DNA of 64,000 bases from Candidatus Heimdallarchaeum aukensis (lineage in GTDB: Archaea > Asgardarchaeota > Heimdallarchaeia > Heimdallarchaeales > Heimdallarchaeaceae): the NCBI GenBank assembly GCA_021513695.1, contig CP084166.1, positions 1,856,001 through 1,920,000 on the forward strand, given 5' to 3'. The position numbers and the translations under genes were made by a program. The notes under the pieces were generated by a model that was not told the origin of the DNA, did not search any database, and saw only the letters and a program-made list of their open reading frames with translations. Below are positions 2,288-55,151 of this stretch, piece after piece (the first letter of the stretch is position 1; each line of letters begins with the position of its first letter).

Positions 2288-3742
2288 CTAGAACTGCAAC
2301 CAATGGCTGAGTCCTCGGCAAACAGTGAAATGAGTAGAACTGTATTTTTGACCAGTGAGGTAATCAGTAATAGTGTTTCCTCGGGGACGGAAAAGCGTCC
2401 CAAGGAACTTCCGAGCGATATTCATTGCTCCTGTGAGGTCAGAGTGGAAAGTATAACCGCAAGAGGAGCAATGTACTAACCCTCTAACGGGACGGACAAC
2501 TTTCCTTCCACAACGAGCACAGTAAGAAGATGTCCCTTTTTCTCCTATTATTAATATACGGTGAGGTTCAAAACCTCGGAGTATCAATGCTCGACGGAGA
2601 AGAGCAAGAACAAGGTAAAAATTCCACTGGTGAAGTTTTCTACGAAACTTACGAGTACTTTTACCTTTCCCTTTTTCTTTCTCCTCTCGAATGTGTTTAG
2701 GGTAACCTACAACAACGAAAAGGTCATACTTTCGAGCATAGGTCTCTATCGTCTGGACGATGTCGCTTATAAATTGGTGAGTATAAGCTCGTTTAACGTT
2801 TCTATATCTTCTTCGAAGAAGACCGAGAAAACGATAGATTTGATGTTTCTTACCCGACTGGTCGTTTAGAGCCGCTTTCCTCTGAAGACGGGAAAGTTTG
2901 AGTTTATATCGATGATTAACTCTATTCCACTGTTTGGTATGCCATAATTTTATCTCTTTACTTGTTAATTTCTTTTTAGGCGTCAGTAACACTCCTGCAG
3001 CAGGAATGTTTATCCCTATATCTATTCCCAGCACAGCTGGAGGAAGAGAAGAAGAATTTTCTTCTTCAGGAGGATAAAAAGAGGAAGAAAGAACTTTTAA
3101 TTGGAAATATACCCACCACTCACGTGTAGAACGTTTATATCTTAACTCTAGACTTTTTATTCTTCCTTTCTTTAACTCTTTCTGGTGGAAAGTGCTCATC
3201 TCTAAAGGTAACCACAATCTCTGGTGGTAAGGTGTTCCTCTTCTCCATGTATCTAACGAGTCTCTTACCCCCACCCACCAACGAGTGAGAGTATTATCCT
3301 TCTCTTTAGGTAGATGAACTAGAATGAACCTCTTTTTGTTAATTAATTGTCTTCTTGCTCTCTTTATCGGAGGACGAGTAGGACTGGGTCTATACCCTTG
3401 TTCGTATAGTTGCACAGCTATATCTCTACACTCTTGAAACTCATCGTGAGAACAATAAGGGAACATTTTCTTGAAATCGTGAGGAACAGTTTCTCTCCTT
3501 TCCTCTTCTTTAACTTTTGAAGTCGTTAGCGTCAGTTCATCTAGTTTTCCTTTATGTACCCTTATTTCCCCTTTTTTTGTTCTTCTACATACCTTTCTTC
3601 TGTTGTGATGTATTATTCTCACATACTTCTCTATTATTCTTGTGTCTCTTCCTGTTATTCTCCTTAACCTTTCCTTTTTCCTTGTCGTCAATACCTTATT
3701 CTTTACTCTCACTTTCAAGGTTTTGACGACGTCCTCCATCAT
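2288..3742 (-). CDS. tnpB: TnpB-like RNA-guided endonuclease (IS200/IS605 family OrfB); no TnpA partner in the window
   Basis: 484 aa. Basic N-terminus, RuvC-I motif LGIDIGINIPAAGV, CxxC...CxxC zinc finger (CARCGRK...CSSCG) and RuvC-III motif HSDLTGAMNIARK. Local GC (~40-45%) is clearly above the ~30% flanks. Confidence 0.8.
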   Translation of the reverse strand: MMEDVVKTLKVRVKNKVLTTRKKERLRRITGRDTRIIEKYVRIIHHNRRKVCRRTKKGEIRVHKGKLDELTLTTSKVKEEERRETVPHDFKKMFPYCSHDEFQECRDIAVQLYEQGYRPSPTRPPIKRARRQLINKKRFILVHLPKEKDNTLTRWWVGVRDSLDTWRRGTPYHQRLWLPLEMSTFHQKELKKGRIKSLELRYKRSTREWWVYFQLKVLSSSFYPPEEENSSSLPPAVLGIDIGINIPAAGVLLTPKKKLTSKEIKLWHTKQWNRVNHRYKLKLSRLQRKAALNDQSGKKHQIYRFLGLLRRRYRNVKRAYTHQFISDIVQTIETYARKYDLFVVVGYPKHIREEKEKGKGKSTRKFRRKLHQWNFYLVLALLRRALILRGFEPHRILIIGEKGTSSYCARCGRKVVRPVRGLVHCSSCGYTFHSDLTGAMNIARKFLGTLFRPRGNTITDYLTGQKYSSTHFTVCRGLSHWLQF

Positions 3743-3870
3743 TCTTTTTTCCTTCCTTTCCTTTGTTTTCTTTTTTTTCTTCTCCTCTTTTTTCTTCTAT
3801 TTTTTTCACTATAAAAACCCCTCTCCTTCCTCTCCGCTCTTCTCTTTTTTCCTCACTTTGCCGCCAACAA
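3722..3870. repeat. Homopyrimidine (CT-rich) / homopurine low-complexity tract of about 150 bp
   Basis: The + strand is an almost uninterrupted run of T and C (tttttccttcctttcctttgttttctttttttt...) between the tnpB start and the tRNA-Leu gene. Confidence 0.7.
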
Positions 3871-3918
3871 CTGTAAATTAAGTAAAAAAATAGACGCATG
3901 GTTGTTTTTTTCTATAAA

Positions 3919-4022
3919 TGGTGAGGGGAGGGCGATTCGAACGCCCGAACCACTAAGGAACGGATGGCCCATCTTCTTTAAGATCTTGAGTCCGTCGCCG
4001 TTGACCTCTTGGCTATCCCCCC
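3919..4022 (-). tRNA. tRNA-Leu (anticodon CAA) with an anticodon-loop intron of about 19 nt; CCA encoded
   Basis: The reverse complement folds as GGGGGGA acceptor, 3-bp D stem, anticodon stem ACGGA/TCCGT with loop CUCAAGA, an insert TCTTAAAGAAGATGGGCC, a long variable arm, and T arm GGGCG-TTCGAAT-CGCCC. 3' strand TCCCCTC-A-CCA. Confidence 0.75.
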
Positions 4023-8656: not shown

Positions 8657-8762
8657 AAGCCAAATAGTGGAGCCAGGACGGGGATTTGAACCCCGGAGGC
8701 ATAAGCCAGCGGTTATCTCTCTGATGTTTCGAGACCGCCTCCGTACCACTAGGATATCCTGG
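8657..8762 (-). tRNA. tRNA-Ser (anticodon CGA) with an anticodon-loop intron of about 13 nt
   Basis: Reverse complement: GCCAGGA acceptor, 3-bp D stem, anticodon stem GCGGT/ACCGC with loop CTCGAAA plus a CATCAGAGAGATA insert, a long variable arm, and T arm CGGGG-TTCAAAT-CCCCG. 3' strand TCCTGGC-T-CCA. Confidence 0.65.
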
Positions 8763-8903
8763 CAAAGGAAAAGTTCATTGTCTTGATTTTCATTGAAGTC
8801 AATATTTTAAGATTTCTACCTTGTTCACTTTTTAATTGATATAAGTACATTTGTGTTTCTTGATATTTTCGAACAAACAAAGATATGGTTAAAAAAAGAA
8901 AAG

Positions 8904-10411: not shown

Positions 10412-12322
10412 TTATTTTTTAGAGAATAGGAAGGTTACAGCTCCGATTACGGACATAAGTATTAACCCACCACCAACCCAGACCCAAACAGGGATTGGAG
10501 GTTTGTATTCTATATTATTTTGGACTCTATTTCCACTAAAATTAGAAGTTTCGGCATCAAATGAAAGTGAATATAACCCCCCTTTCACTCCTTTCAATAG
10601 AATTTCACCGCCCCATCCAGCATATTTCTCTTCATTGAAAGTAAGATTATAGTAGTATGTTCCTTTCTCCCCACTCAATGTTACTGTTACAAAATCAGCT
10701 CCATTAGCATCATTAATCTCAGTTTGATTATAAAATATAATATCTAAGTCACTTATAAGAAGCGTTCTTCCGTCAAATGAAATTATTGGTTTATCCAATC
10801 TTAATTTGAAATGTTCTAAGGTTTCAACTAACACACTAGCTTGAGGACCCAAACCAAATGGATCACCATAAACAGTTGGATAATCCTCGTCAACATAAGC
10901 CAAGCAGAACAATATTTTCCTTACTTCTTTTTCTGGTTCAACATAAAATTGTTCTTTTGTTGTCTCATAAATTTCATAATCAATTAGTGTGTCATCTTTA
11001 GAAAAATACAAAGTTACAATGCCTAATCTTTTTTTATCTTTATTATTTATTCTAACATCCATAAACCGGTTAAGCAGATTTATTTCAAATGTGTAAAAAC
11101 CATAATATGGTACATCTATTGTAGAGGATATCTCTGTATAAGTTATTGTTACTGGTTCGATAGTGAATGTAATATCTGTAAATCCAAATGTTCCATTAGC
11201 AAGGTCGGGTCTATCTATTAATAAAGCTACATGCCAGTTGTAGAAAAAGTCGTTAAATGTTTCGCCTTTATCTTTTAATTCATCATTTATGGATTCTTGG
11301 ACAGGTCTAGTGTCATTAACAAATTTTCTGATTATATCAGGACCAAATTGCTCGTAAACATAAAAAACAAAAAGATAGGCTCCACCATAATCAATTCGTA
11401 CATCACGGTTTCCCTCAGAATAATAATTCCAATAAATTAAAGAATCATCTGAATGTTCTTTAAAGTAATTTTCACTCCAATAAGAAACTCCTTCATAACC
11501 ACCAGGCATTCTTCCAGTTATATACTCTGAAAATACTGCACATCCTTCATCGAACCAGCGCATTTCATCCTGATCATGGTTGTAATGAATTAAGTGTTGA
11601 AACTCATGTGCCAAGGTATCAGTGTAATCTGCGATACCACCAATAAATATCATTTCCCATTCATTAGATTTCAAATAGGAGTATCCTTGTGCATCTAGTT
11701 CCTCTTGTGTATGCTCATTAATTCCCCAGAAATACCCAGCATAATTTGAGGGAAGGTAAGTATGAAGAATGATTAATCTTCCATCACCTATGTTCCCCAA
11801 ATTACCCTCCATATCTCCAAAAAAATCATATTCTATAGGGTAGATTTTACTTTCGAATATACTTTTTTCGCTTGTTATTAGATTATTTACAGCATTTACC
11901 CCATATTCATTAATCATATCAATTTCTACAAAATAGTATGCATGCTCTGAAATGGCAACAACTTTGGCTTCTGCAATTCTAAAACTAATTGTATTTCCGC
12001 CTTCTTCTACGTAAAAACTTTTAGTATCTCCTACATTGAAAGATAGACTATAACTCGTAGTCTTTTTTACTTCTGAACGTGATATATGCTTAGTATTTTC
12101 AATGATTTCTTTTGGAACACTATGAGTAAGCACAATTTCATTTTGAGGAGAATCTTGAAAATAGTTTACTGTTTCAGCTTTAATTTTTGTATTCATTTCT
12201 TTTTCTGTATTAGAAGTATAACTAGAATCCGCAAACAACGAATTTGGTATAAAAAATTGTGATAGAATAATAATAACAAATATTTTAGTCAATAGTTTAT
12301 ATTTTTTAAAAACAGATGTCAT
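10412..12322 (-). CDS. Secreted zinc metallopeptidase (HExxH gluzincin-like) with a C-terminal transmembrane anchor
   Basis: 636 aa. N-terminal signal peptide, HEFQHLIHYNHDQDE...E zinc-binding motif, and a C-terminal hydrophobic helix followed by KK. Confidence 0.5.
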   Translation of the reverse strand: MTSVFKKYKLLTKIFVIIILSQFFIPNSLFADSSYTSNTEKEMNTKIKAETVNYFQDSPQNEIVLTHSVPKEIIENTKHISRSEVKKTTSYSLSFNVGDTKSFYVEEGGNTISFRIAEAKVVAISEHAYYFVEIDMINEYGVNAVNNLITSEKSIFESKIYPIEYDFFGDMEGNLGNIGDGRLIILHTYLPSNYAGYFWGINEHTQEELDAQGYSYLKSNEWEMIFIGGIADYTDTLAHEFQHLIHYNHDQDEMRWFDEGCAVFSEYITGRMPGGYEGVSYWSENYFKEHSDDSLIYWNYYSEGNRDVRIDYGGAYLFVFYVYEQFGPDIIRKFVNDTRPVQESINDELKDKGETFNDFFYNWHVALLIDRPDLANGTFGFTDITFTIEPVTITYTEISSTIDVPYYGFYTFEINLLNRFMDVRINNKDKKRLGIVTLYFSKDDTLIDYEIYETTKEQFYVEPEKEVRKILFCLAYVDEDYPTVYGDPFGLGPQASVLVETLEHFKLRLDKPIISFDGRTLLISDLDIIFYNQTEINDANGADFVTVTLSGEKGTYYYNLTFNEEKYAGWGGEILLKGVKGGLYSLSFDAETSNFSGNRVQNNIEYKPPIPVWVWVGGGLILMSVIGAVTFLFSKK

Positions 12323-12513: not shown

Positions 12514-15204
12514 ATGTCGTCGGAAGGATATAAAATTATATCTGGTGTCCAATTTGGACTTTTAGATCCAGATACAATTCGCAAGTTGTCTGCAGAACGT
12601 ATTATTACCCCCGATACATATGACGCTGATGGTAGTCCTATTGATTCTGGATTGATGGATGGAAAATTAGGAACTATTGACCCAGGACAAAGATGTAAAA
12701 CATGTGGAGCTAGAATCGGAAGTTGTCCTGGTCACTTTGGCCACATTGAGTTATCTAGACCAGTAATACACGTAGGATTTAATAAATTAATATACAAAAT
12801 TTTACGAGCGTCTTGCCGTAATCCAGAGTGTCATAGAATTTTATTGGATCCAAGTGAAATCGCAGAAGCGAGAGAGAAACTTGCAGAATATAGAGAGCAA
12901 TGGGGAGAAGAAGATTACGAATTAATTGAGGAATTAATGAAACGTGCTGCTAAAAAAAATGTTTGCCCATATTGTGGAGAAAAACAGCATAAAATAAGAT
13001 TAGAAAAACCAACTACTTATTTTGAAGAAGTAGAGATAGAAAACGGGCAAAAGCAATTAAATAAATTAAGCCCTACAGATATTCATTCATGGTTTAAAGG
13101 TCTTAGTGATGAAGATTGTGAATTATTTGGAATAAATCCAAAATATGCGAGACCTGAATGGATGATTCTCGAAGTATTACCTGTTCCTCCTGTCAGCGTT
13201 AGACCTAGTATTACATTAGAAAATGGTATTCGTTCAGAGGATGACTTGACACACAAACTCGTTGATATAATTAGAATTAATCAAAGGCTCTTAGAGAATA
13301 GAGAAGCTGGTGCACCACAACTTATAGTTGAAGATTTATGGGAACTTCTACAATACCATGTTAGTACATACTTTGATAACGAAATTAGCGGTATTCCCCC
13401 TGCAAGACATAGAAGTGGGAGAGCACTAAGAACACTCACACAAAGATTAAAAGGAAAAGAAGGTAGATTTCGTTCAAATTTGAGTGGAAAACGTGTAGAT
13501 TTTTCCGCAAGAACCGTAATTAGTCCTGACCCATTATTATCAATAAATGAGGTTGGTGTTCCAAAAGATATAGCAGAAATACTTACAGTACCTCAAAGGG
13601 TAACAGAGTGGAACATCGAAGAAATGAAAGAACTAGTCCTTAAGGGGCCAAAATCATTTCCAGGAGCAAATTACATAATCCGCCCTGATGGTCGAAGAGT
13701 TGACCTTAGATACGCACGAAATTTACAAGCAGCAGCAGATAGTATAAAACCAGAGTTTATTATTGAACGCCACTTAAGAGACGGAGATATTGTCCTCTTT
13801 AATCGACAACCAAGCTTACACAGAATGAGTATTATGGCCCATGAAGTAAAAGTAGTTCCATATAAAACATTTAGATTAACTCTTCCAGTTTGTAGGCCTT
13901 ATAATGCTGATTTTGACGGAGACGAGATGAATCTTCACGTCCCTCAAAGTGAAGAAGCACAAGCAGAAGCGAGAATTTTAATGCGTGTTCAAGAACAAAT
14001 AAGTACTCCACGATATGGAGGACCAATCATTGGAGCAATCCAGGATTTCATTACAAGCGCATATTTCCTTACAAGAAAAGACGCGAAATACACCAGAAGT
14101 GAAGTATCACAACTTATAACGGCAGCAGGTTTAGAAAAACTTCCAAAACCAGATCTGAAAAGCGAAGACGGAAAAGATCTTTGGAGTGGAAAAGCATTAT
14201 TCAGTGCACTATTACCTGAAGATTTCAACTTCACAATGAAAAACAAACTTTGTGAGGAACACGAGACTTGTATGAAACAAAAATGTCCTAATGAAGCATA
14301 TATATTTATTAAAAATGGCCAGCTCAAATCAGGAATTATTGACAAAAAAGCTTTTGGTGCAGAAGTTCCAGATAGCGTCCTACACAGAATTCTGAAAGAA
14401 TATGGAGCAGATATTACTAGAAAGTTCTTAGATAATGTTACGAGGTTATTGATCACAAATATTACATTACGTGGATTTAGTATGAGTGCAAGCAATGTTG
14501 ACATTCCAGCAAAAGCAGAAAAACAAATAGAAAAAATACTAAAGAAAGCAAAGGAAGAAGTAAATAAACTAATAGAACAATACAAAAATGGAACCTTAGA
14601 AAGACAACCAGGACGTACTGAAGAAGAAACATTGGAAGCAAAAATAATGGAAACACTATCAAAGGCAAGAGATGATAGTTCAAAGGTCAGTTCACAATAT
14701 TTAGATCCAGATAATGAAGCTCTAATTATGGCTAAAACGGGTGCAAGAGGAAATATGCTAAACTTGGGACAAATGAGTGCATGTGTCGGACAGCAAGCAG
14801 TAAGAGGACAACGAATAGTAAGAGGGTACAGAAACAGAGTTTTACCTTTTTTCAAGAAGGATGATTTATCTGCTGAAGCTCATGGATTCGTTGATAGTAG
14901 CTTTAGAAAAGGATTAAACCCAATTGAATTCTTTATGCACGCCTGTGGAGGAAGAGAAGGTTTAGTAGATACTGCAGTAAGAACATCACAAAGTGGGTAC
15001 ATGCAAAGAAGGTTGGTAAACGCACTACAAGATATTTCATCTTGCTATGATAATACTGTCCGAAATGCTACCGGGGAAATTGTCCAATTTACCTATGGAG
15101 AAGATAATGTAGACCCTGCAAAAAGTGATCATGGAAAAGCTGTAAACGTTAAGTTGATTGTAAACAAAATTTTAGAGACTTTCAGCGAGGAAGGAGAAGA
15201 ATAA
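12514..15204 (+). CDS. rpoA1: DNA-directed RNA polymerase subunit A' (Rpo1N)
   Basis: 896 aa with zinc-binding Cys motifs, the NADFDGDEMN catalytic motif and an Rpo1N-typical N-terminus. Confidence 0.95.
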   Translation: MSSEGYKIISGVQFGLLDPDTIRKLSAERIITPDTYDADGSPIDSGLMDGKLGTIDPGQRCKTCGARIGSCPGHFGHIELSRPVIHVGFNKLIYKILRASCRNPECHRILLDPSEIAEAREKLAEYREQWGEEDYELIEELMKRAAKKNVCPYCGEKQHKIRLEKPTTYFEEVEIENGQKQLNKLSPTDIHSWFKGLSDEDCELFGINPKYARPEWMILEVLPVPPVSVRPSITLENGIRSEDDLTHKLVDIIRINQRLLENREAGAPQLIVEDLWELLQYHVSTYFDNEISGIPPARHRSGRALRTLTQRLKGKEGRFRSNLSGKRVDFSARTVISPDPLLSINEVGVPKDIAEILTVPQRVTEWNIEEMKELVLKGPKSFPGANYIIRPDGRRVDLRYARNLQAAADSIKPEFIIERHLRDGDIVLFNRQPSLHRMSIMAHEVKVVPYKTFRLTLPVCRPYNADFDGDEMNLHVPQSEEAQAEARILMRVQEQISTPRYGGPIIGAIQDFITSAYFLTRKDAKYTRSEVSQLITAAGLEKLPKPDLKSEDGKDLWSGKALFSALLPEDFNFTMKNKLCEEHETCMKQKCPNEAYIFIKNGQLKSGIIDKKAFGAEVPDSVLHRILKEYGADITRKFLDNVTRLLITNITLRGFSMSASNVDIPAKAEKQIEKILKKAKEEVNKLIEQYKNGTLERQPGRTEEETLEAKIMETLSKARDDSSKVSSQYLDPDNEALIMAKTGARGNMLNLGQMSACVGQQAVRGQRIVRGYRNRVLPFFKKDDLSAEAHGFVDSSFRKGLNPIEFFMHACGGREGLVDTAVRTSQSGYMQRRLVNALQDISSCYDNTVRNATGEIVQFTYGEDNVDPAKSDHGKAVNVKLIVNKILETFSEEGEE

Positions 15205-15208
15205 CGAG

Positions 15209-17983
15209 GTGAAAAAAGTGGCTAACTATCTTACAACAAGACAAATTAGTAATAAATTAAGAAAGTTGAAAGAAGAAGGAATTCCTCAGACAATTGTTGA
15301 TGAATTAAAAGAAGAATTGAAAGGAAAAAACGTAACTCAAAAACAGATGGATCTTATAATAAAAGAGATAGTTAAGAGTTATGAATTTGCGCAAATTGAC
15401 CCAGGTAGCGCAGTAGGAACAGTAGCAGCACAATCTATAGGCGAACCAGGAACACAAATGAGTATTCCAGGTAATGAGAAAGTAGTTGTAAAAATTGGAA
15501 GTAAAACAGAAATTATAGAAATCGGAGAGTTTATTGACAATTTATTAGAAAAAAATGAAGGTTATTTAATAGAAAATGAAACAGAGACAGTTGTTTATGA
15601 TCTACCAAATAATAGTGATATCTATGTTTTAGGGATAAACAATAAAGAAAAAATAGTATGGCAAAGAATTCTACAAATAAGTAGGCATTTGCCTAATGGG
15701 AGCCTATTAAGAATAAAAACAAAATCAGGTAGAACAATTACCGCTACATTTTCTCATTCGTTTGTTATACGAAAAGATAATGAGATTGTGCCAGTAAAAG
15801 GAAAAGAATTGCAGTTAGGAGACAGATTACCTATCGTCTTATCTATTCCATCTATGACGCCAATAACAGAGTTATCAGTAAGTGAATATTTACCAAAAGA
15901 GGAAATATGGCATAACCCAGATTTAGCTATAACAATACCAATCAGAGAAGAATATGGAGGAAATCGTTACAACGAACATACAACATCAATAAAACAAGAT
16001 GATTCGTATGAAATCATTAAAATAGAGAAAATTGAAGAGGAAGATTCTTTTTATCCTAGAATTTATCAAAATAATAAAGCACTCATTCCTGAGAAAATTC
16101 CTCTCACAGATGATTTTGCATGGTTTATTGGTGCATATCTAGCAGAAGGGAGTAACACTGGTACAAGAATTTCCATTTCAAATATCAACTATGATTACCT
16201 TAAAAAAGTTGGAAAGTTTGCGGAGTGGCTAAATATTTCAACAGCAACAACAAGCAAAAATGAAGAATTTGGATCTAGTTTAAGTATCCATCTTAACTCA
16301 ATGCTTCTCGCAAAGTTGATGAAAAGAATGTGTGGAAAAGGCCCAGAAACTAAATTTGTTCCAGGATGGACAATCAATACAAAAACGGAATTTATTGGAC
16401 ACTTGCTTCGAGGATTTTTCGATGGAAATGCAACTATTAGTACAGAAAAAGGTGTAATCATAGCTCGTTCTAAATCCAAAGAATTACGCGATGGAATATG
16501 TCTTTTACTATCAAGGTTAGGAATTTTTGCTAAAAAAAGTAACCAAGGAAATAGTTACATATTAACCATTCCTGGAAAATATGCGGAGATATTCCATTCA
16601 AAAATTGGTTCTGACATTGATTATAAAGAAAAATCACTGCTTCAACTTATAGAAATTGAAAAATCAAAACAAAAGACAGATGACTCTGTGGATATAATAC
16701 CAGGATTAGGAACCATCTTTGAGGATATAAAAGAAAAACTAGACTTAAGCCCACAAGTAATTTCTATTGCAAGCAACAAACAAGCCATTGGAAGACAAGC
16801 ATGTGCTCAATATATCAAAATGTTTTCTGAAATTGCTGTGAAGAAAGGAATTAATATAGATAATGAGCTTATGACCTTAAATCAAGCATATAATAGTGAC
16901 GTATTATGGGATGAAATTATAAGTTTAGAGAAAATCGATTCTCCTACACCTTATGTCTATGATTTTGGGGTTTCAGAACTTGAAACATTTATGACTGCAG
17001 AAGGAATAATAACTCATAACACCTTACAGACTTTCCATTACTCTGGTGTTGCAGAGATGTCTGTTCTTCGAGGTTTACCAAGATTAATAGAAATCGTTGA
17101 CGCTAGAAAAAATCCTAGTACTCCAACTATGAGAATTCATTTAGATAAAATAGGAGAAAAGGATGAACAAATAGCTAAACAAGTCGCTAGAAGAATTGAG
17201 TTAACTACTGTTAGCAATGTAGCAACTAGTATTAAGCACAGTTTTGCAGAAGGATGCATAAAGATCAAATTGGAACCAGTTTTACTAGAAGATAAAGGTA
17301 TTGAGCCTGAGACCATCGTCAAAAAGATCCAGAAGAAAAGAAGGCGTATTAAAGTAGAAATAGACCCCAACGATGAATATACTATTATTGTAACCCCAAC
17401 AAAAGAACTTAAGTTCAATGAATTACCAAAACTTGCAGAAAAGGTAAAGGACATACCTATTAAAGGATTAAAAAATATTACTAGAGTAGTAGTTCTTAAA
17501 AACAAACAAGGAGAGTATTATCTTCAAAGTGAAGGGAGTAATTTCAGTGAATTACTGCGAATACCGGGAGTCGATCCAACTAGATGCTATAGCAGTGACA
17601 TAAATCAAATTGCAGAAACCCTAGGGATTGAAGCAGCAAGAAATGCGCTCATACAAGAATCTTTAGCAGTTATGAAAGAACAGGGATTAGACGTAGATAA
17701 AAGACATGTTATGCTTGTTGCAGATCTTATGACATTGGTTGGAGAAGTACAGCAAATTGGACGACATGGTGTTTCAGGAAAGAAAAGCTCTGTTTTTGCT
17801 AGAGCAGCTTTTGAAGTAACCGTGAAACATTTGTTAGAAGCCGCAATCCATGGGGAACATGAACCTTTAGAAGGAATTACAGAAAATGTTATAATTGGAC
17901 AAACAATTGCATTAGGAACAGGAATTGTGGATCTTACTATGAGTCCAAATTATAGAGAGTTTGCCAAAGAAGAAGAAAACTAA
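15209..17983 (+). CDS. rpoA2: DNA-directed RNA polymerase subunit A'' (Rpo1C), intein-containing precursor
   Basis: 924 aa. The extein AAQSIGEPGTQM | TLQTFHYSGVAEMSVLRGLPRLIEI is interrupted by a 520-aa insert. The conserved C-terminal A'' sequence is present. Confidence 0.9.
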   Translation: MKKVANYLTTRQISNKLRKLKEEGIPQTIVDELKEELKGKNVTQKQMDLIIKEIVKSYEFAQIDPGSAVGTVAAQSIGEPGTQMSIPGNEKVVVKIGSKTEIIEIGEFIDNLLEKNEGYLIENETETVVYDLPNNSDIYVLGINNKEKIVWQRILQISRHLPNGSLLRIKTKSGRTITATFSHSFVIRKDNEIVPVKGKELQLGDRLPIVLSIPSMTPITELSVSEYLPKEEIWHNPDLAITIPIREEYGGNRYNEHTTSIKQDDSYEIIKIEKIEEEDSFYPRIYQNNKALIPEKIPLTDDFAWFIGAYLAEGSNTGTRISISNINYDYLKKVGKFAEWLNISTATTSKNEEFGSSLSIHLNSMLLAKLMKRMCGKGPETKFVPGWTINTKTEFIGHLLRGFFDGNATISTEKGVIIARSKSKELRDGICLLLSRLGIFAKKSNQGNSYILTIPGKYAEIFHSKIGSDIDYKEKSLLQLIEIEKSKQKTDDSVDIIPGLGTIFEDIKEKLDLSPQVISIASNKQAIGRQACAQYIKMFSEIAVKKGINIDNELMTLNQAYNSDVLWDEIISLEKIDSPTPYVYDFGVSELETFMTAEGIITHNTLQTFHYSGVAEMSVLRGLPRLIEIVDARKNPSTPTMRIHLDKIGEKDEQIAKQVARRIELTTVSNVATSIKHSFAEGCIKIKLEPVLLEDKGIEPETIVKKIQKKRRRIKVEIDPNDEYTIIVTPTKELKFNELPKLAEKVKDIPIKGLKNITRVVVLKNKQGEYYLQSEGSNFSELLRIPGVDPTRCYSSDINQIAETLGIEAARNALIQESLAVMKEQGLDVDKRHVMLVADLMTLVGEVQQIGRHGVSGKKSSVFARAAFEVTVKHLLEAAIHGEHEPLEGITENVIIGQTIALGTGIVDLTMSPNYREFAKEEEN
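15461..17020 (+). mobile_element. Intein with a LAGLIDADG homing-endonuclease domain inside rpoA''
   Basis: The insert begins with Ser right after GEPGTQM and ends ...GIITHN followed by extein Thr. It contains the LAGLIDADG-like blocks WFIGAYLAEGS and LRGFFDGNAT. Confidence 0.8.
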
Positions 17984-18711
17984 TCCTCTCTCTTTTTTAA
18001 ATTTTTAAAGTGAACATGTGTTGGAACATGAACAAAGATATAGTCTTTGGCTAATTCACTCAATTTTTTCGCTTCAAACAGAGTTAAGTGGTAATCTTCT
18101 TTTTTTTCAATGAATGTTGTTTCTATCAAAGCAAGGTCAATATCCTTGACAAGTTTTTCTAGTTGATCAAAATATCCAGTATCTCCTGTATATAAGATCG
18201 TTTCTTTGTTTTTTGATATTTTATATCCAACAGCACTCATTTTTTTTCCAGCTGGACTTAAAGAGCTTCTATGCTGCACTAAAAAAGGAGTTATAACAAA
18301 AGGTCCGAATTTAAGAGAAATGTCCTTTGCTTCGACAAAATTTATTTCAAAAGTTTGATGTTGCTTATGGTATTCTGTAAACACATTAATCATATTTTTA
18401 AGATTGGAGTTATCAGGAGGTGAAATGATATTGAGAGTTTTATTTCGTTTCACTAATCTAAAAATAGAGAGTAATGAAAATATACCTCCAACATGATCAA
18501 AATGGCCGTGGGTTATTGCAATAGTACTTATTTTCTCAAAAATTTGTCCTGGTAACTCTAATAGGTCTCTAACTATTCCATCTCCAGCATCAACTAAAAG
18601 AAAACTGTCTTCACCTCTACTCTGTATAAGTATTTGTGATGCAACTCCAGCAACAGAAAAAAGAACTTTTACATTGAATTCTTTTCCAACCCAATCCCAA
18701 TTAACACTCAT
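17980..18711 (-). CDS. Metallo-beta-lactamase fold hydrolase
   Basis: 243 aa with the AITHGHFDHVGG motif (HxHxDH) and downstream His/Asp ligands. Confidence 0.65.
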   Translation of the reverse strand: MSVNWDWVGKEFNVKVLFSVAGVASQILIQSRGEDSFLLVDAGDGIVRDLLELPGQIFEKISTIAITHGHFDHVGGIFSLLSIFRLVKRNKTLNIISPPDNSNLKNMINVFTEYHKQHQTFEINFVEAKDISLKFGPFVITPFLVQHRSSLSPAGKKMSAVGYKISKNKETILYTGDTGYFDQLEKLVKDIDLALIETTFIEKKEDYHLTLFEAKKLSELAKDYIFVHVPTHVHFKNLKKRED

Positions 18712-37341: not shown

Positions 37342-38316
37342 CTATTCATGTTTTATTCTTGACAGTTTAGCTAAGAATGCCCCAATTTGTATATTACTTG
37401 ATGCCCCTTCAGATATTCTGAAATCAACTTCTGCCAGATATTGAGTAATCTCAAGTTTTGATACTTCTGGAATATCAAGTTTTGGTATCTCTTTATATAT
37501 TTGATAGGTTACATCTGTTCCTGATAAACCATATTCTAACATCAACTCATGTAACTGACTTCTTGCTTGTTGGAACTCTCCGTTTAATGCAAGCAATACC
37601 ATATTTTTTATCTGATCAGGATCAGCTTGACCAATAGTTTTTCTTACAGTCAACGCTTCAATAGAATGCCCCGATGCTGCTGTAGACTGGAGAATGTTTA
37701 TTGCTTTCCTTAAGTCTCCTTCTGCTATGTATAGAATAGTCTCGATTCCTTCTTTGTCATAAACAAGATTTTCTTTTTCAGATATGTAAATCAAATATTT
37801 TCTTATTTCCTCATCTGATAAGGGTTTAAATCTAAAGATAGCACAACGTGATTGTATTGGTTCAATTATTTTACTGGAGTAGTTGCAAATTAGAGCAAAT
37901 CTACTAGTCCTAACATATTTTTCCATTGTTCTTCGTAGTGCATGTTGTGCTGCACTTGTTAAATTATCAGCCTCATCTAAGCAAATAATTTTGAATGGTG
38001 CATTATATGGTGCAGTTCTTGCAAATTCTTTTATTTGTGTTCTAACAATATCAATTCCTCTATCATCTGATGCATTTAATTCTAGAATATTATGATGATA
38101 AGTATCGGGACCAAATAAATCATGTGCCAAAGCTAAAACTGCTGTTGTTTTTCCTGTTCCAGGTGGTCCAGCAAATAAGAGGTGTGGCAGATTACCTTTT
38201 TCTACAAATCCTTTTAATCTTACAACTATATCTTGATGTCCCCTAAGATCGTTTAATGATCTTGGTCGATATTTTTCTGTCCACATAATATTGTAATTTA
38301 CTTTCATTATCTCCAT
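37342..38316 (-). CDS. rfcS: Replication factor C small subunit
   Basis: 324 aa with the RFC box and Walker A LLFAGPPGTGKTT, DEAD-like Walker B LDEADNLT, and the SRC motif SRCAIFRFKPL. No intein. Confidence 0.9.
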   Translation of the reverse strand: MEIMKVNYNIMWTEKYRPRSLNDLRGHQDIVVRLKGFVEKGNLPHLLFAGPPGTGKTTAVLALAHDLFGPDTYHHNILELNASDDRGIDIVRTQIKEFARTAPYNAPFKIICLDEADNLTSAAQHALRRTMEKYVRTSRFALICNYSSKIIEPIQSRCAIFRFKPLSDEEIRKYLIYISEKENLVYDKEGIETILYIAEGDLRKAINILQSTAASGHSIEALTVRKTIGQADPDQIKNMVLLALNGEFQQARSQLHELMLEYGLSGTDVTYQIYKEIPKLDIPEVSKLEITQYLAEVDFRISEGASSNIQIGAFLAKLSRIKHE

Positions 38317-42154: not shown

Positions 42155-42463
42155 TTAAACAGTATTATCCCAAATGTTGAATAATTGTTTTAATGAGTGA
42201 GCTCTAATATTTTGATCTTGATATTGAAATATTCGAATTCTACCAAAAGTTTTTTCTTTTACTAAACCAATTCTTACCAGATATTCTAAATGATTAACTA
42301 CAACTCCATGATTTAACTTCACTTGTTTAGATATTGCAGATATGTTAATTTCTCCTTTCTCAGCCAAAAGTTTCAAGATTTTTACTCTCCCACGAGAAGA
42401 TAAGACCTCATCTATTGGTGGAGAACTCGTAGATTTAATACTCTGATTATTTATTTTAGCCAA
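42155..42463 (-). CDS. Winged-helix transcriptional regulator, putative
   Basis: 102 aa with a predicted HTH (RVKILKLLAEKGEINISAISKQVKLNHGVVVNHLEYLVRIGLV). Confidence 0.4.
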   Translation of the reverse strand: MAKINNQSIKSTSSPPIDEVLSSRGRVKILKLLAEKGEINISAISKQVKLNHGVVVNHLEYLVRIGLVKEKTFGRIRIFQYQDQNIRAHSLKQLFNIWDNTV

Positions 42464-43682
42464 CCTCCTTTTTTTGACTTACTTCACCTTTGCTCTTTGT
42501 TAAAGATTTCAATATAACATCTTCAATAAATGCCAAAGGAGCATCAGGAACACTGATAAGTGTTGTTTTTCCTTTCATTCCTTTTCCTGAAAGTTTGCAG
42601 TTAATAATATCTTGTTTTGAAAGTTCATTCAAATAAGACCAAAACTGAGTATGCTTTCTGGGGTGTTCGCCATACTCTTCGCAGAGCAAGCGATATGTAC
42701 TTATAGCATCGCTTGTTGAAATATATGCATTTTTTGTATGTTTAAGTTTTCGCAAGATAGACAACAATGTCAGTTTCTCGTGAATGGAAAGAACTAACAC
42801 AACCTCCTTACGTAACTCTGGATGAATTAACGACTTTGCTTTTCTTACATGATCAGGATAAACAACAGGAGAGTTGTCGTTATCACAACAATGTCCAGCA
42901 CCCCAAAGTAGTTCAATGGCATATCGAGCATCACCAGTTTTACTTGCAATATCAGCAATAAGCCTTATTGCATCATCTGTAACTGTTTCTTTATAAAAAG
43001 CCAGTTCAGCTCTTGATCTAACAATATCAATTAAATCAGATTCAGAATATCTGTCCAACGATATGTGATTAGAGTGAAAACTACTTTGTGTACTTGTGTC
43101 AAGTAGTTTCAAGAAATTAGTATTTTTTGCGATAAAAATGTAGGAAACATATTGATCTTGTGATATTTCTCCAATTCTTAATAGAGAATATAAGATATCA
43201 GTTCCAGTACGTGTGACTAAGTAATCAATTTCATCAAGAACTATCAGCAGCTTATATTTATTCTGCTGTAAATGCTTCACAAAAAAATGCTGTAATTCTT
43301 CAACAGAATAACCTCTTTGCGGGATATTTTTGTTCAGTTTTTGTAGAAGGACATTAAATATCAAATAAGGACTTTTATAAATACGGCAATTTATATATAT
43401 AAAGTGAAAATTTTTAATTTTAACTACATTTTCTAAAATTTGACCAAATCTTTTCGCAAGTGTGGTTTTGCCAGAACCTGTTGGGCCAGTAATAGTTGCA
43501 TAACGGCTAAAATTAAGATAATTATTTGTTAAATGTTTATATTGCTTTGCCAAGAGTCTTAGCTCTTCTTCACGATGGGGGAGTAAAGGTGGAATAAAGG
43601 AAATTGATAAATAACCTTCATTTTTAATCACGGAAGGTTTTTCAGCTAATAATTTAAAATAATCTTCATCAGATGAATACAT
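42456..43682 (-). CDS. orc1: Orc1/Cdc6 replication initiation protein
   Basis: AAA+ Walker A TGPTGSGKTT, Walker B LIVLDEIDYL, LPHREEEL motif and C-terminal winged helix. The start is set at Met29 (MYSSDEDYF), which is preceded by TTTATATTTATAG. The ORF extends to 43766. Confidence 0.8.
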   Translation of the reverse strand: MYSSDEDYFKLLAEKPSVIKNEGYLSISFIPPLLPHREEELRLLAKQYKHLTNNYLNFSRYATITGPTGSGKTTLAKRFGQILENVVKIKNFHFIYINCRIYKSPYLIFNVLLQKLNKNIPQRGYSVEELQHFFVKHLQQNKYKLLIVLDEIDYLVTRTGTDILYSLLRIGEISQDQYVSYIFIAKNTNFLKLLDTSTQSSFHSNHISLDRYSESDLIDIVRSRAELAFYKETVTDDAIRLIADIASKTGDARYAIELLWGAGHCCDNDNSPVVYPDHVRKAKSLIHPELRKEVVLVLSIHEKLTLLSILRKLKHTKNAYISTSDAISTYRLLCEEYGEHPRKHTQFWSYLNELSKQDIINCKLSGKGMKGKTTLISVPDAPLAFIEDVILKSLTKSKGEVSQKKEVG

Positions 43683-43891
43683 TTTGCTTTCTATAAATAT
43701 AAATATGAACATAGTATTTATAGTTGATACAGACACCTTATTGAAAGTGAAAAAATCAATTTTCAATAGAGTAAAAAAATACCGTTTATAAGAATGGAAG
43801 ACATAAAATGTAATTTCCTAAAATAAAAAGATGGCAAAAATGATAAGAGAGAAAATATTTGAAGCTAAAAAGATATAACAATTTGATTAAT

Positions 43892-44421: not shown

Positions 44422-47340
44422 TCATAGTTCAATGCTTAAACTTTTTCTCTTCTTATAAAATTTGATACCAATAAAACTAATAGCTGAAATAGTAAGAGAT
44501 CCTATAGCAAGAGGAATAAAGATAACTGTATTGTTAAAACTATTATTAATACCAATCAGATTAAGCAACAAATAGGTTCCCTCAGCAAGTTCAAGTCCAC
44601 TAATTTTTACATAGGAGTAAGAGATAACTATTTTGTATGTGTCGGTAATTTCCAGCCCATTTGAATTAGTGATCTTCCAATCGTAGGAACTAAGAGATGT
44701 ATTAATATTTGAATATAAGAGTATAGATGCATTTTTGTACAAATAGGAAGCATAGATTTTTAGTTGAAATTGGATTTCATTATTAGTGACATAAGACTTA
44801 ACATTCAATTGTGGACCCTTACAAATAATAACAAATTTATGTGAATATGTAGAACTATTAGCTTTAACTTGCCAATAAAAAGATGTATTATCCCATGTCA
44901 CTGGAATCATAAATAACCCCGTATCAATATAGGCATTTAGAACAGGAGGAATGCCGTCAACCATAGGTAAAAACCATCTATCATTTTGAGCGCTATATTT
45001 GATCCAATAAGAAAATGTTACATTATTACCGAGTAACAACTCATCATCAGTTTTATCAACATCGACTTTCAGAATTTGGTTAATTATTGTAAATGTTTTT
45101 ATCTTAATAATGGAAGAATATCGCATAATATGCAAAGTTACATTGATAGACAAAATATTAAGAGGAACTAAAATCTTATTTTGGAAGTATCCCATTTCAT
45201 CAGTGATACCAGATAAAGCACCACCGGAGCCAGATATATTTCCTATATAAAATTTTAAAGGAGCAAAAGCAACAGGAAAACCATCACAAGACACATTCAG
45301 ATTAATTGAATAATACTTATCATTCAAGGAAAAATAGTCTAGTACGACGTTAAGAGGGCTTTCATATGAAATGAGAGAAATAATCTTAACAACTGATGCA
45401 TGAAATGTAGAGAAAGCCATTATCTTAACAGTATGATTTCCTAAGCTTAAGTAATACATTGAAACAATAAAATCTACTTCTGTTATATTTGTGAAAGAAT
45501 ATACTTTTGTATCATCGAGAAATACATAAATTGAAGAATTTTCGATTGAAATATTATTTCCCAAGCTATGATAAGAAAGGTTGACAGATGTACTTCCATA
45601 TTGTGGCAGGGTTAAACTGTCTACAATGGCAATATCTGCCGCGTAGCGCGTTAAACTGATATTACAAGAATAATAAAAAATTGTCGAGTTAAGATTCAGA
45701 AAAATTATTGAGTACTCTCCTCTTGGAATAATAGAAGGAAAACGATATTCAAGCATGTTGTTTTGAATATCTAAAATCACCCCCCCACTTACAGGTCCAA
45801 TCCAAAAAAAGTTTGTTTTAATTGAAAGACTATTGAAAGTGAGATTAAATTCTACATTGAGGGTTTCAAATAGGATAGACGATGTGAGAACAATGCTTTT
45901 CACATTGTTTTGGATAGCAAATATTGTTACTAAGCTACTTGTATTACAAATTAACAGTTCATACTGATCAAAGTCTTCAAACTCATTGACAGAGATAAGT
46001 GTAACATATTGAGAATTATATTCAACTAGAGACCAATTTAATGGAATACCGATAACAACACCAAAAACTCCAGTGACAATATTATCAATTGAAACATTGA
46101 ATAAAATTTCATCGGGTGGGACAAGCAATAACTGTCTCTTAGAGAATAGTGATATGTTTCCAATAGCTTGTAAACTAAATTGCCCTTCAACAGTATAAGA
46201 AGAATTTAATGAAAAAATAAGATTAACATCTGTTTTTTCTTCAACATGCACTTGAATTGAAAACGAACCCTTTAGATCATCAATGCTATTAACTAAAGAT
46301 CCATTTAATTTAAGTTCAATTTCTTCAGGAATAGGTTGAGACTCTATTTTAAGATTATCAAAGAAAAATGAACTTTCAGATTGTTCTGGTGATATCACAA
46401 AGATACTAAATCCTTCTAGCTGAGAAGGAATATTTGAGGAAAATTCTGATAATATTGCTGATAAATTTAATGACAAACTATTCCAATTATCATCCCACGT
46501 TGTATTTCTTACAAATTTAAAAGTATCATAATCACCAGAAGTATCATTTTGACCTACTTGTTCCAATCCGACATTACTGTAAACCCAGTTATATATCGCT
46601 ACTCTACACGTATCAAAAGTAAAATCGAAAATTACACTGGAGTTTATAACATTTTGAATTGAAGAATTACTATCAAACTTGTAGTCATAAGAGAGAATAA
46701 TATTTCGACTAAATAATGATAAATCTTTCATATAGGTTGAATATTTTAAAGAAGTAGTATTATTTGCATAAATCTTCCACGAGTAATTACCAGACAATCC
46801 ATTACTTGTAAGATAGCGTTGTAATTCGATTCCTGTATGAACTGAATCATTAGCGTAAAAACTCTCTGCTGTTTCTGCTCCTGAATTCTGAATTATGTTA
46901 GCTTTCAAATCTGAAACATTACCCACAAGAAAAAAATCTCCTTTTTCTGGAAGTGTTATCCCTATTTCTTTATCTGAGAGGTTTAAATAATTTAGATCAC
47001 TTTTATATCGCCCATTTAATTCGATTTTCGGAGCAAAATTGGATATCGTTTTATTATAATCAACGTTAATATTTTCATCGACAGTTATCGAATTTTTCAA
47101 GTAAGTTATTGAAGAGTTAGATGACGATGTTTGTATTAATGGCTCATTTGTCTCAGAGTATACAATTTGTGCTTTAGGAAGAGATGTTTTTGTAAAAACA
47201 GAAGAAATAGAATCAGATTCTGTAAGCGCATTTAATAAAGTTGAATTCTGTATATCCAAGAAAGAAAATTGCCCTATTATAATAGTAATCATCAGCACAA
47301 TTAATAATTGCTTATTAATCGGATTAGATTTTAATTTCAT
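44422..47340 (-). CDS. Large surface/extracellular protein with N-terminal signal-anchor and C-terminal TM helix
   Basis: 972 aa. Rich in Ser/Asn/Thr, with many N-x-S/T sequons. Hydrophobic N-terminus and a C-terminal hydrophobic helix followed by a KKRK stop-transfer. Confidence 0.4.
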   Translation of the reverse strand: MKLKSNPINKQLLIVLMITIIIGQFSFLDIQNSTLLNALTESDSISSVFTKTSLPKAQIVYSETNEPLIQTSSSNSSITYLKNSITVDENINVDYNKTISNFAPKIELNGRYKSDLNYLNLSDKEIGITLPEKGDFFLVGNVSDLKANIIQNSGAETAESFYANDSVHTGIELQRYLTSNGLSGNYSWKIYANNTTSLKYSTYMKDLSLFSRNIILSYDYKFDSNSSIQNVINSSVIFDFTFDTCRVAIYNWVYSNVGLEQVGQNDTSGDYDTFKFVRNTTWDDNWNSLSLNLSAILSEFSSNIPSQLEGFSIFVISPEQSESSFFFDNLKIESQPIPEEIELKLNGSLVNSIDDLKGSFSIQVHVEEKTDVNLIFSLNSSYTVEGQFSLQAIGNISLFSKRQLLLVPPDEILFNVSIDNIVTGVFGVVIGIPLNWSLVEYNSQYVTLISVNEFEDFDQYELLICNTSSLVTIFAIQNNVKSIVLTSSILFETLNVEFNLTFNSLSIKTNFFWIGPVSGGVILDIQNNMLEYRFPSIIPRGEYSIIFLNLNSTIFYYSCNISLTRYAADIAIVDSLTLPQYGSTSVNLSYHSLGNNISIENSSIYVFLDDTKVYSFTNITEVDFIVSMYYLSLGNHTVKIMAFSTFHASVVKIISLISYESPLNVVLDYFSLNDKYYSINLNVSCDGFPVAFAPLKFYIGNISGSGGALSGITDEMGYFQNKILVPLNILSINVTLHIMRYSSIIKIKTFTIINQILKVDVDKTDDELLLGNNVTFSYWIKYSAQNDRWFLPMVDGIPPVLNAYIDTGLFMIPVTWDNTSFYWQVKANSSTYSHKFVIICKGPQLNVKSYVTNNEIQFQLKIYASYLYKNASILLYSNINTSLSSYDWKITNSNGLEITDTYKIVISYSYVKISGLELAEGTYLLLNLIGINNSFNNTVIFIPLAIGSLTISAISFIGIKFYKKRKSLSIEL

Positions 47341-55035: not shown

Positions 55036-55151
55036 GGCTCGGTAGCTCAGCAGGCTAGAGCGCAAGACTCATAATCTTGTGTTAAAGGGCTAGATATGGC
55101 TTGCGAGGAGAAATCTTGAGGTCGGGGGATCGAAACCCCCCCGAGCCACCA
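55036..55151 (+). tRNA. tRNA-Met/Ile2 (anticodon CAU) with a 39-nt anticodon-loop intron; T-loop AUCGAAA; CCA encoded
   Basis: Acceptor GGCTCGG/CCGAGCC, D arm GCTC-AGCAGGCT-AGAGC, anticodon stem CAAGA/TCTTG with loop CTCATAA. The insert is ATCTTGTGTTAAAGGGCTAGATATGGCTTGCGAGGAGAA, and TCTTG is repeated at both junctions. T arm GGGGG-ATCGAAA-CCCCC. Confidence 0.75.

Follow-up and report, generated by a model that had tools for sequence, protein, structure and literature searches.

The rpoA'' locus and its insert

The window, the whole 64-kb stretch of Candidatus Heimdallarchaeum aukensis DNA under analysis, contains the gene for RNA polymerase subunit A' (rpoA', 12514..15204, + strand, 896 aa), which matches Pfam Rpb1 domains 1-5 and whose product is identical to UJG39857.1 of this organism. 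Directly behind it, on the same strand, lies rpoA'', which together with its insert encodes 921 residues from a GTG at 15218 (15218..17983). A mechanical list of open reading frames starts this ORF at another GTG (15209..17983, +). Position 15218 is most likely the true start, since an SD-like GAGGTGA precedes it and, in alignments, it coincides with the ATG start of H. endolithica and with the starts called in close relatives. The product matches NF011491/PRK14898, the NCBIfam equivalog for 'intein-containing' RpoA'' (875.8 bits, cutoff 783), and TIGR02389 (444.9 bits).

An earlier note, made from the sequence alone, had placed a 520-aa intein at 15461-17020, and these boundaries hold to the base: the first Ser codon (AGT) occupies 15461..15463 and the last Asn codon ends at 17020 (+ strand), which corresponds to residues 82-601 of RpoA'' counted from GTG 15218. 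The translated ORF reads ...AAQSIGEPGTQM and then SIPGNEK.... As described in that note, the insert interrupts the GEPGTQM|TLxTFH motif of RpoA'' (...SIGEPGTQM|S...THN|T...), starts with Ser, terminates in His519-Asn520 and is followed by Thr (TLQTFHYSGV). The N-extein (15218..15460, +) ends in ...SIGEPGTQM and holds the trigger-loop Gln, the equivalent of Pfu A'' Q80 and Rpb1 Q1078, and the C-extein (17021..17983, +) begins with Thr+1-Leu-Gln-Thr-Phe-His and holds the trigger-loop Leu and His, the equivalents of Pfu A'' L83 and H87 (PMC3737540). Removal of the intein in silico yields a 404/405-aa RpoA'' that is collinear in one stretch (19-401) with solved archaeal RpoA''/Rpo1C chains (12-394; 391-397 aa), and that also aligns with intein-free Asgard RpoA'' proteins (50-78% identity, typically ~400 aa, among the best 120 matches). 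The other genes that the note had called intein-free, rpoB, rpoA', rfcS and orc1, are so by profile as well, with no Pfam intein or LAGLIDADG match in RpoB, RpoA', RFC-S or Orc1/Cdc6.

The insert has a modular architecture, defined by Pfam and NCBIfam profiles, alignment, an AF2 model and Foldseek, with all of its parts on the + strand. The N-terminal Hint (splicing) half (intein aa 1-130, 15461..15850) is beta-rich and matches TIGR01445 intein_Nterm (E 2.2e-11). It contains block A (SIPGNEKVVVKIG) and block B (GRTITATFSHSFVI, 15728..15769), the latter with its T-x-x-H signature present as T96-F-S-H99 (T96, 15746..15748; H99, 15755..15757). The linker between Hint and endonuclease carries a 54-residue insert (aa 152-205, 15914..16075) of low model confidence (pLDDT <50), at which the family consensus is gapped, as are most non-Asgard alleles. 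The LAGLIDADG endonuclease core (aa 216-385, 16106..16615) is delimited by LAGLIDADG_3, the DSSP pattern and Foldseek. Between this core and the C-terminal Hint half lies a helical accessory domain (aa 386-478, 16616..16894; for the 'ACD' concept see PMC8966425), whose helices (387-402, 419-427, 431-440, 445-462 and 467-477) are modelled with high pLDDT and in which G444 and R445 are conserved in the family alignment. The C-terminal Hint half (aa 479-520, 16895..17020) matches TIGR01443 intein_Cterm and contains block F (PYVYDFGVSELETFMT) and block G (AEGIITHN), reading VYDF...GIITHN|T across the junction.

Of the intein HMMs with which the note had proposed a comparison, Pfam Intein_splicing (PF14890, E 1.4e-20, aligned over intein residues 38-520), TIGR01445 and TIGR01443 all match, and Pfam LAGLIDADG_3 (PF14528, E 1.4e-13) is found in the intein as well. 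The AF2 model is of high quality (pLDDT 87.9, pTM 0.87; both Hint halves >90), and the structures in the PDB closest to it are PI-PkoII (E 1.6e-27), TliVMA, PhoVMA, PI-PfuI and PI-SceI. The matches to the solved archaeal inteins PI-PkoII, PI-PfuI, TliVMA and PhoVMA have Foldseek E values of 1.6e-27 to 4.8e-20 and TM scores of 0.56-0.79; these inteins are non-allelic (DNA polymerase, RNR and VMA hosts) and only 12-18% identical in sequence. Superposition with mini-inteins (MvuTFIIB, RadA, PolII) gives an rmsd of 1.7-2.8 A over about 126-131 columns. The splice residues are intact: position 1 is Ser or Cys in 42/42 aligned alleles, T96, H99, S100, Y500, D501, H519 and N520 are invariant across an alignment of 60 sequences, and Thr+1 is conserved.

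Judged by these features, the insert belongs to the class-1 Hint/LAGLIDADG inteins. Once translated, the Hint domain would cut itself out of the precursor and ligate the exteins by the usual pathway, in which Ser1 undergoes an N-O acyl shift, the N-extein passes to Thr+1 by transesterification, Asn520 cyclises with the assistance of His519, and a final O-N shift gives the ligated RpoA''. We infer that RpoA'' is indeed spliced, given the intact splice residues and the signs of purifying selection, described below, in the exteins and both Hint halves. Splicing would restore an intact trigger loop and would therefore be obligatory for a working polymerase. That the insert is instead a lineage-specific structural domain of A'', kept in the mature polymerase in the manner of SI3 in the E. 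coli trigger loop, has next to no probability. Bacterial trigger loops do tolerate large insertions, as at the SI3 site (PMC3737540), but here every intein block and splice residue is present, the intein HMMs match, and the predicted Hint and LAGLIDADG fold resembles that of solved inteins. Moreover, the insertion falls between the Q and the L/H of the trigger-loop helix and not at its tip, and the same site has 201-aa mini-inteins and empty alleles.

The rPol A'' allele family

The note had also suggested comparing the insertion point with known rpoA'' sites. It proves to be the known rPol A'' site, common to Methanocaldococcus and located inside the RNA polymerase trigger loop. By alignment, the insert is a member of the long-known rPol A'' allele family, the classical Mja rPol A'' allele of InBase, which first became known with the M. 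jannaschii genome. Alleles given in the literature are Mja rPol A'' and Nph rPol A'' (PMC1635734), and a literature search for inteins in Heimdallarchaeum found nothing usable. At least 46 homologous inteins occupy exactly the same site in Asgard and DPANN archaea, Methanococcales and haloarchaea. The junction GTQM|S...THN|T is found in the 40 database homologues for which both boundaries were recovered. It is also that of H. endolithica and of the haloarchaeal loci L010-L013; these last come from a GTDB genome scan that confirmed at least four haloarchaeal loci and is not a taxonomic census. One of the haloarchaeal alleles at the site is a mini-intein of 201 aa.

Similarity searches separate this family from other inteins. 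With the intein alone as query, the best 100 matches (P0001-P0100) are all recognizable by an RpoA'' name or motif or by RNA-polymerase Pfam domains; allelic matches range from E 1e-135 to about 1e-20, and inteins of other hosts score 1e-17 or worse. The intein alone also scores 420.6 bits against NF011491 (profile positions 76-543). The top identity was 47% in the intein-only search and 78% in the extein-only search, and the lack of congeners among these matches reflects the search and not the biology; the rpoA'' genes of congeners were reached through an exact look-up of RpoA' and the members of its 90% cluster.

The Mja rPol A'' intein shares with the H. aukensis intein the host protein, the insertion point (GEPGTQM|S...THN|T, identical) and the arrangement of Hint, LAGLIDADG and helical accessory domains. 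Homology with the Methanocaldococcus and Methanotorris alleles extends over the full length (36-37% identity, E about 1e-87), and the alleles of Methanocaldococcus sp. 10A and 28A likewise lack the block E Asp (AG and NG). Unlike the Mja type, with about 463-471 aa, the H. aukensis intein has 520 aa; the extra length is mainly the 54-residue linker insert, which in kind is common to other Asgard alleles. The two also differ in their host, here an Asgard archaeon (Heimdallarchaeia), and in the block E substitution, here Asn-Ala.

The closest relatives among the matches listed are RpoA'' inteins of Asgard (Promethearchaeati) MAGs (P0001-P0006 and P0036; 'Promethearchaeota', 'Ranarchaeia'), with 41-47% identity by BLASTP and 44-50% in local alignments. 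They share the insertion site and a similar length (503-540 aa) and fall in the same group of the NJ tree, which was built without support values and places the H. aukensis intein within an Asgard clade. However, their exteins are just 41-55% identical to H. aukensis RpoA'', which assigns them to different Asgard lineages. Most of these MAG inteins (P0001-P0004) keep the EG/DG pairs of the endonuclease and look active, whereas the Heimdallarchaeum copies do not.

The endonuclease domain

The endonuclease core is predicted to consist of two alpha-beta-beta-alpha-beta-beta-alpha halves (DSSP of the AF2 model), with the LAGLIDADG helices at 217-229 and 309-323 and beta hairpins after each. Foldseek aligns it with I-DmoI (target-normalised TM 0.67-0.74) and I-Tsp061I (0.66). 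Both LAGLIDADG-like blocks reported in the earlier note exist, as FIGAYLAEG (motif 1, block C, 16124..16150, +) and LRGFFDGNA (motif 2, block E, 16406..16432, +), but the proposal that the insert is probably still a homing endonuclease finds no support in the second of them. In block C, the Glu-Gly pair found in 37/42 allelic inteins is retained (E229-G230), and its GAA and GGG codons are identical across 7/7 Heimdallarchaeum sequences. Lys298, invariant in the family alignment, is also present. In block E, positions 8-9 are Asn-Ala, against Asp-Gly in 34/42 alleles: Asn323 (16427..16429) takes the place of the catalytic Asp, and Ala324 that of the Gly. Of the two acids that an active LAGLIDADG endonuclease has at position 8 of its motifs, that of motif 1 is present (E229) and that of motif 2 is absent (N323-A324). 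In the AF2 model, N323 ends the second LAGLIDADG helix in the position equivalent to E229 at the end of the first. An alternative register of motif 2, with D321-G322 as the catalytic pair, was considered and rejected, because LRGFFDGNA fits the consensus LLRGYFDGDG column by column and because the helix ends at 323, as the first does at E229.

The NA pair is unique to the H. aukensis lineage, and a KG pair occurs only in H. endolithica, the first position being encoded by AAT in the window and by AAG in H. endolithica. From these codons, and by parsimony across just two lineages, loss of the catalytic Asp probably predates the split between the two species. The endonuclease most likely no longer makes a double-strand break. 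A precedent is the PhoVMA intein, which has kept the fold and lost the block C and block E acids, and which is inactive in cleavage in vitro but is rescued once the acids are restored (PMC8966425). It differs from the H. aukensis intein in that both acids and a helical turn are lost, whereas here only the block E acid and the adjacent Gly have changed. A literature search on PI-SceI D218/D326 found nothing usable.

Two other views of the domain bear on this point. A fully active homing intein, with a LAGLIDADG enzyme that still cleaves rpoA'' alleles lacking the intein and drives gene conversion, would be in keeping with the two-domain fold, predicted with high confidence, and with the intact Glu-Gly of motif 1 and the invariant Lys298. 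We nevertheless regard it as distinctly unlikely: beyond the Asn-Ala pair itself, the Lys of H. endolithica is a charge reversal at a metal-binding position, and inteins without these acids are inactive in vitro (PMC8966425).

The second view is that the domain is a nickase or a DNA-binding remnant, capable either of nicking one strand through its E229 centre or of no more than binding to the rpoA'' site. Nicking or weak activity may indeed persist from the remaining E229 centre together with K298, and the one catalytic acid that is kept is identical in 7/7 Heimdallarchaeum sequences. In a monomeric LAGLIDADG enzyme each of the two centres is specific for one strand, and variants engineered to have a single centre are able to nick; however, the centres share metal ions, so that a mutation in either acid usually prevents both strands from being cut. 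Such a remnant is unlikely on balance; if real, it would mean homing at low frequency or none, and it would account for the continued constraint on the fold.

Selection, inheritance and meaning

Substitution patterns differ between the parts of the gene. The exteins (pN/pS 0.03) and the N- and C-terminal Hint halves (0.11 and 0.10) are under purifying selection, and the codons of the splice residues vary solely synonymously among Heimdallarchaeum sequences. The linker insert (aa 152-205) has a pN/pS of 0.87, indistinguishable from neutral (p=0.66). Between H. aukensis and H. endolithica, dS is 0.60 in the intein and 0.68 in the exteins, and none of the seven Heimdallarchaeum rpoA'' sequences contains a stop or frameshift. 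This leaves a negligible probability for a decaying pseudogene, in which splicing has ceased and this copy of rpoA'' is non-functional. Nothing specific speaks for such decay, although a second rpoA'' copy outside the 64-kb window is conceivable; against it stand the strong extein constraint at a dS of 0.68, the values of the Hint halves, the open reading frames, and the position of rpoA'' directly behind rpoA' with its own SD.

The endonuclease core and accessory helical domain are constrained as well (pN/pS 0.27, p=7e-9 against neutrality, and 0.37, respectively). The value for the core would also be expected of an endonuclease still active in some way and counts in favor of full activity, and both values speak for a nicking or binding remnant. 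When the window is compared with its close relative L007, however, the core pN/pS is 0.72, indistinguishable from neutral, which argues against such a remnant, although the counts are small (13 non-synonymous and 5 synonymous). These 18 substitutions hint that constraint on the core was relaxed after the Asp was lost.

The persistence of purifying selection (0.27-0.37) despite an Asp loss that predates the species split raises a further possibility, that the endonuclease and accessory domains were co-opted as a DNA- or protein-binding module, or as a sensor that makes splicing conditional. We give this only a slim chance; the simpler explanation is that association of the Hint halves, and with it splicing, depends on a folded nested domain. 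If the sensor version were true, maturation of the trigger loop, and hence transcription capacity, would be regulated post-translationally in an Asgard archaeon.

The intein is present in 6/6 complete congener rpoA'' genes fetched, and a seventh, partial gene (contig L005) holds most of it. It is absent from the RpoA'' of sister Heimdallarchaeaceae (exteins 73-78% identical, ~402 aa), and the allele is apparently limited to the genus Heimdallarchaeum among the Heimdallarchaeaceae sampled. In one of these intein-free alleles (L009) the junction reads GAACCAGGAACTCAAATG|ACTTTACAGACCTTCCAT, with the amino acids around the site identical to those in the window, and 79/90 nucleotides around the site are identical between the window and the intein-free sisters. 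Such targets would suit an active homing enzyme, but the similar dS of intein and exteins, together with an intein in every congener fetched, argues for fixation and vertical descent and not for ongoing invasion. Base composition does not point to a recent foreign origin, with GC 0.314 and GC3 0.198 in the intein against 0.351 and 0.220 in the exteins.

The reading that we prefer, with a probability of roughly three in four, is that of a splicing-competent class-1 rPol A'' intein whose endonuclease is most likely dead, and which is fixed, vertically inherited and immobile in the genus Heimdallarchaeum. Its nested LAGLIDADG domain would keep the fold and the first catalytic Glu, but with the second catalytic Asp lost (Asn323-Ala324) the double-strand break needed for homing is most likely no longer made. 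The intein would be retained because any deletion that was not precise would destroy an essential gene.

The H. aukensis RpoA'' intein is thus an ordinary representative of its widespread family, with little importance beyond annotation, for which NCBI already has a dedicated model of intein-containing RpoA''. It is of modest use in documenting the rPol A'' allele in a closed Asgard genome, and it cautions that two recognizable LAGLIDADG blocks alone do not indicate an active endonuclease. Phylogenetic work on the archaea-eukaryote question uses RpoA'' as a standard marker, and intein-containing copies therefore need in silico splicing before alignment. For the family as a whole, one site shows all stages of the homing cycle: active-looking copies, copies whose catalytic residues have decayed, a mini-intein, and sites that are empty.

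Identity and insertion site of the RpoA'' intein

The rpoA'' open reading frame (15209..17983, +), 5 nt downstream of rpoA' (12514..15204, +), contains a real intein at 15461..17020, whose limits were set correctly and whose allele has long been known. The translated frame reads AAQSIGEPGTQM, then SIPGNEKVVVKIG, and after 520 residues MTAEGIITHN, then TLQTFHYSGV. Scripted codon positions place the first Ser codon at 15461 and the end of the last Asn codon at 17020, exactly the limits given in the earlier note, and the initial Ser, terminal His-Asn and following Thr that it described are all seen in the translation. In the stretch 15206..15220, the mechanical start of the frame, GTG 15209, falls within a Shine-Dalgarno-like GAGGTGA. 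Given this sequence ahead of it and an aligned ATG in H. endolithica, GTG 15218 is probably the true start; the choice has no effect on the intein finding.

Profile searches, of the kind that the note had proposed with intein HMMs, support the intein reading. Pfam Intein_splicing matches across the whole insert (E 1.4e-20), together with LAGLIDADG_3 (E 1.4e-13), and RNA_pol_Rpb1_5 lies on the flanks. The match to NCBIfam NF011491 (PRK14898), the equivalog of 860 positions built for RpoA'' with an intein, reaches 875.8 bits (cutoff 783), with the insert alone spanning profile positions 76-543, and the generic intein terminal models TIGR01445 (N) and TIGR01443 (C) match as well. Without the insert, RpoA'' is 404/405 residues long and gives one continuous alignment with the archaeal RpoA''/Rpo1C chains of known structure (391-397 residues). 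Structurally, an AlphaFold2 model of the intein built from 60 family members (mean pLDDT 87.9, pTM 0.87) is confident throughout except residues 152-205. It comprises a Hint N-half (intein residues 1-130), a linker including the low-confidence insert 152-205, a LAGLIDADG core (216-385), a helical accessory domain (386-478) and a Hint C-half (479-520). The closest PDB matches are the intein homing endonucleases PI-PkoII (E 1.6e-27), TliVMA, PhoVMA, PI-PfuI and PI-SceI; the Hint part is matched by mini-inteins and the endonuclease core by I-DmoI and I-Tsp061I.

Of the 106 proteins matched by the insert alone, P0001-P0100 have Pfam domains of RNA polymerase or are named as, or show motifs of, RpoA'' (E 1e-135 to about 1e-20); inteins of other host proteins appear at E 1e-17 or worse. 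All 40 homologues with both junctions recovered share the context GEPGTQM/S (or C)...THN/T, in hosts spanning Asgard (Promethearchaeota, Ranarchaeia), Woese-, Aenigm- and Micrarchaeota, Methanocaldococcus and Methanotorris. A genome scan added at least four haloarchaeal alleles at the same site: those of Halorubrum and relatives (L010-L012) are 490-498 aa long with intact EG/DG catalytic pairs, and that of a Haloferacaceae MAG (JAHENP010000042.1, 1501..2103) is a 201-aa mini-intein without endonuclease, at the exact rpoA'' site. As known archaeal RNA polymerase inteins, PMC1635734 names Mja rPol A', Mja rPol A'' and Nph rPol A'', and the Heimdallarchaeum site is the classical rPol A'' allele, which answers the earlier question of whether the site was a known one.

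On Pfu A'' numbering the intein interrupts the trigger loop between M81 and T82; Q80, L83 and H87 correspond to Rpb1 Q1078, L1081 and H1085 (PMC3737540). The insert thereby parts the Gln reading the NTP 2'-OH from the NTP-contacting Leu and His (residue roles from PMC3737540). Since trigger-loop deletion and H87A polymerase variants show no promoter-dependent transcription (PMC3737540), an unspliced precursor with 520 residues in this loop is, by analogy, very unlikely to be functional, and splicing would be required. Judged from its sequence, the H. aukensis intein has most likely retained splicing.

Other genes in the window

As previously stated, the other candidate hosts are intein-free: RpoB (56398..59802, +), RpoA', the RFC small subunit (37342..38316, -) and Orc1/Cdc6 (42456..43766, -) are of ordinary length and give no Pfam match to inteins or LAGLIDADG domains. 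The RNA polymerase genes do not form one intact operon, rpoB lying about 38 kb downstream of rpoA'/rpoA'' (12514..17983, +). A divergent 636-aa ORF (10412..12322, -), conserved in congeners and without a Pfam match, precedes rpoA', and a convergent metallo-beta-lactamase-fold gene (Lactamase_B/Apyc1-like; 17980..18711, -) overlaps the rpoA'' stop by 4 nt. In the intein-free Heimdallarchaeaceae locus L009, rpoA'' is followed by the ribosomal protein S12 gene, the canonical arrangement.

Elsewhere, a 484-aa ORF (2288..3742, -) with a Cas12f1-like/TnpB TNB domain (PF07282, E 1.5e-8) probably encodes a TnpB-type transposon-associated nuclease, and adjoins an intron-bearing tRNA (Rfam, 3922..4022, -). 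This 101-nt gene and a 113-nt one (55036..55148, +) are Rfam tRNAs missed by ARAGORN, which calls a 96-nt gene (8668..8763, -) 'tRNA-???'; all three over-long genes are probably intron-containing archaeal tRNAs. The largest unannotated protein of the window is a 972-aa ORF (44422..47340, -) without a Pfam-A match at E <= 0.001.

Distribution and selective constraint

The congener sample consists of the fetched neighbourhoods of RpoA' cluster members: in H. endolithica and all five other complete metagenomic relatives, the intein occupies the identical site and the proteins are 921-922 aa long. Among the matches listed, the next closest RpoA'' proteins come from other Heimdallarchaeaceae and Heimdallarchaeota MAGs (extein identity 73-78%); all are about 400 aa and none has an intein Pfam domain. 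Around the site, intein-free L009 is identical to the window in amino acids and matches it at 79/90 nucleotides. The inteins closest in sequence, at 44-50% identity in local alignments, reside in Asgard lineages with exteins only 41-55% identical, and a simple NJ tree without support values places the Heimdallarchaeum inteins within an Asgard clade, consistent with either inheritance from an Asgard ancestor or acquisition from another Asgard lineage. The literature searched held no discussion of an rPol A'' intein in the Heimdallarchaeum lineage. On a 3.9-kb contig (L005, JGI 3300014911; 2745..3926), an endolithica-like rpoA'' has N-extein residue ~31 fused in frame to intein residue ~30 (IVDEL/LENNESYL), with DELxE common to both sides and about 80 codons absent, the splice junction among them. 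The fusion may have arisen by collapse during assembly; if instead the deletion is real, it would abolish splicing.

Nei-Gojobori estimates between the window and H. endolithica give similar dS for exteins (0.68; dN/dS 0.02) and whole intein (0.60; dN/dS 0.20), indicating that the two diverged together. The Hint N- and C-halves have pN/pS of 0.11 and 0.10, and Ser1, H99, N520 and Thr+1 differ synonymously only, so strong conservation marks the splicing machinery. Values rise to 0.27 in the endonuclease core (Fisher p 7e-9 versus neutrality) and 0.37 in the accessory domain, and the Asgard-specific insert 152-205 is neutral (0.87, p 0.66), behaving like a disordered spacer. When the window is compared with its close relative L007, the core reaches 0.72, a value drawn from just 13 non-synonymous and 5 synonymous changes. 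In the comparison with H. endolithica, the endonuclease fold remains constrained despite loss of a catalytic acid. The simplest explanation would be that the nested endonuclease must fold so that the Hint halves can meet, placing even a dead enzyme under constraint; the nested domain can aid splicing (PMC8966425).

State of the homing endonuclease

Both LAGLIDADG-like blocks reported earlier are present, as FIGAYLAEG and LRGFFDGNA. Of 42 aligned alleles, 37, the window included, have Glu-Gly at positions 8-9 of motif 1 (block C), and 34 have Asp-Gly at positions 8-9 of motif 2 (block E), where the window has Asn-Ala and H. endolithica Lys-Gly. The block E register is secure, since the window aligns with the family consensus LLRGYFDGDG in every column and the modelled LAGLIDADG helices end at equivalent residues, E229 and N323. 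The position-8 codon is AAT in the aukensis and AAG in the endolithica lineage, Asp being GAT or GAC; the shortest path would therefore replace Asp by Asn in the common ancestor of the two species, with a later change of that Asn to Lys.

In I-CreI and PI-SceI, Asp-to-Asn replacement at the motif acid position abolishes cleavage and leaves DNA binding unaffected. The PhoVMA intein, without its block C/E catalytic acids, shows no activity in vitro, and putting the acids back makes it cleave again (PMC8966425). By these precedents, the Asn-Ala of block E suggests that double-strand cleavage has probably been lost, and the earlier description of the intein as probably still a homing endonuclease does not hold. 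Residual nicking via the intact E229 centre may persist; homing, most likely, no longer occurs. Similar catalytic decay is found in Methanocaldococcus sp. 10A (AG) and 28A (NG) and in P0006, P0036, P0082 and P0084. With decayed alleles, a mini-intein and empty sites, the rPol A'' locus displays every stage of the homing cycle.
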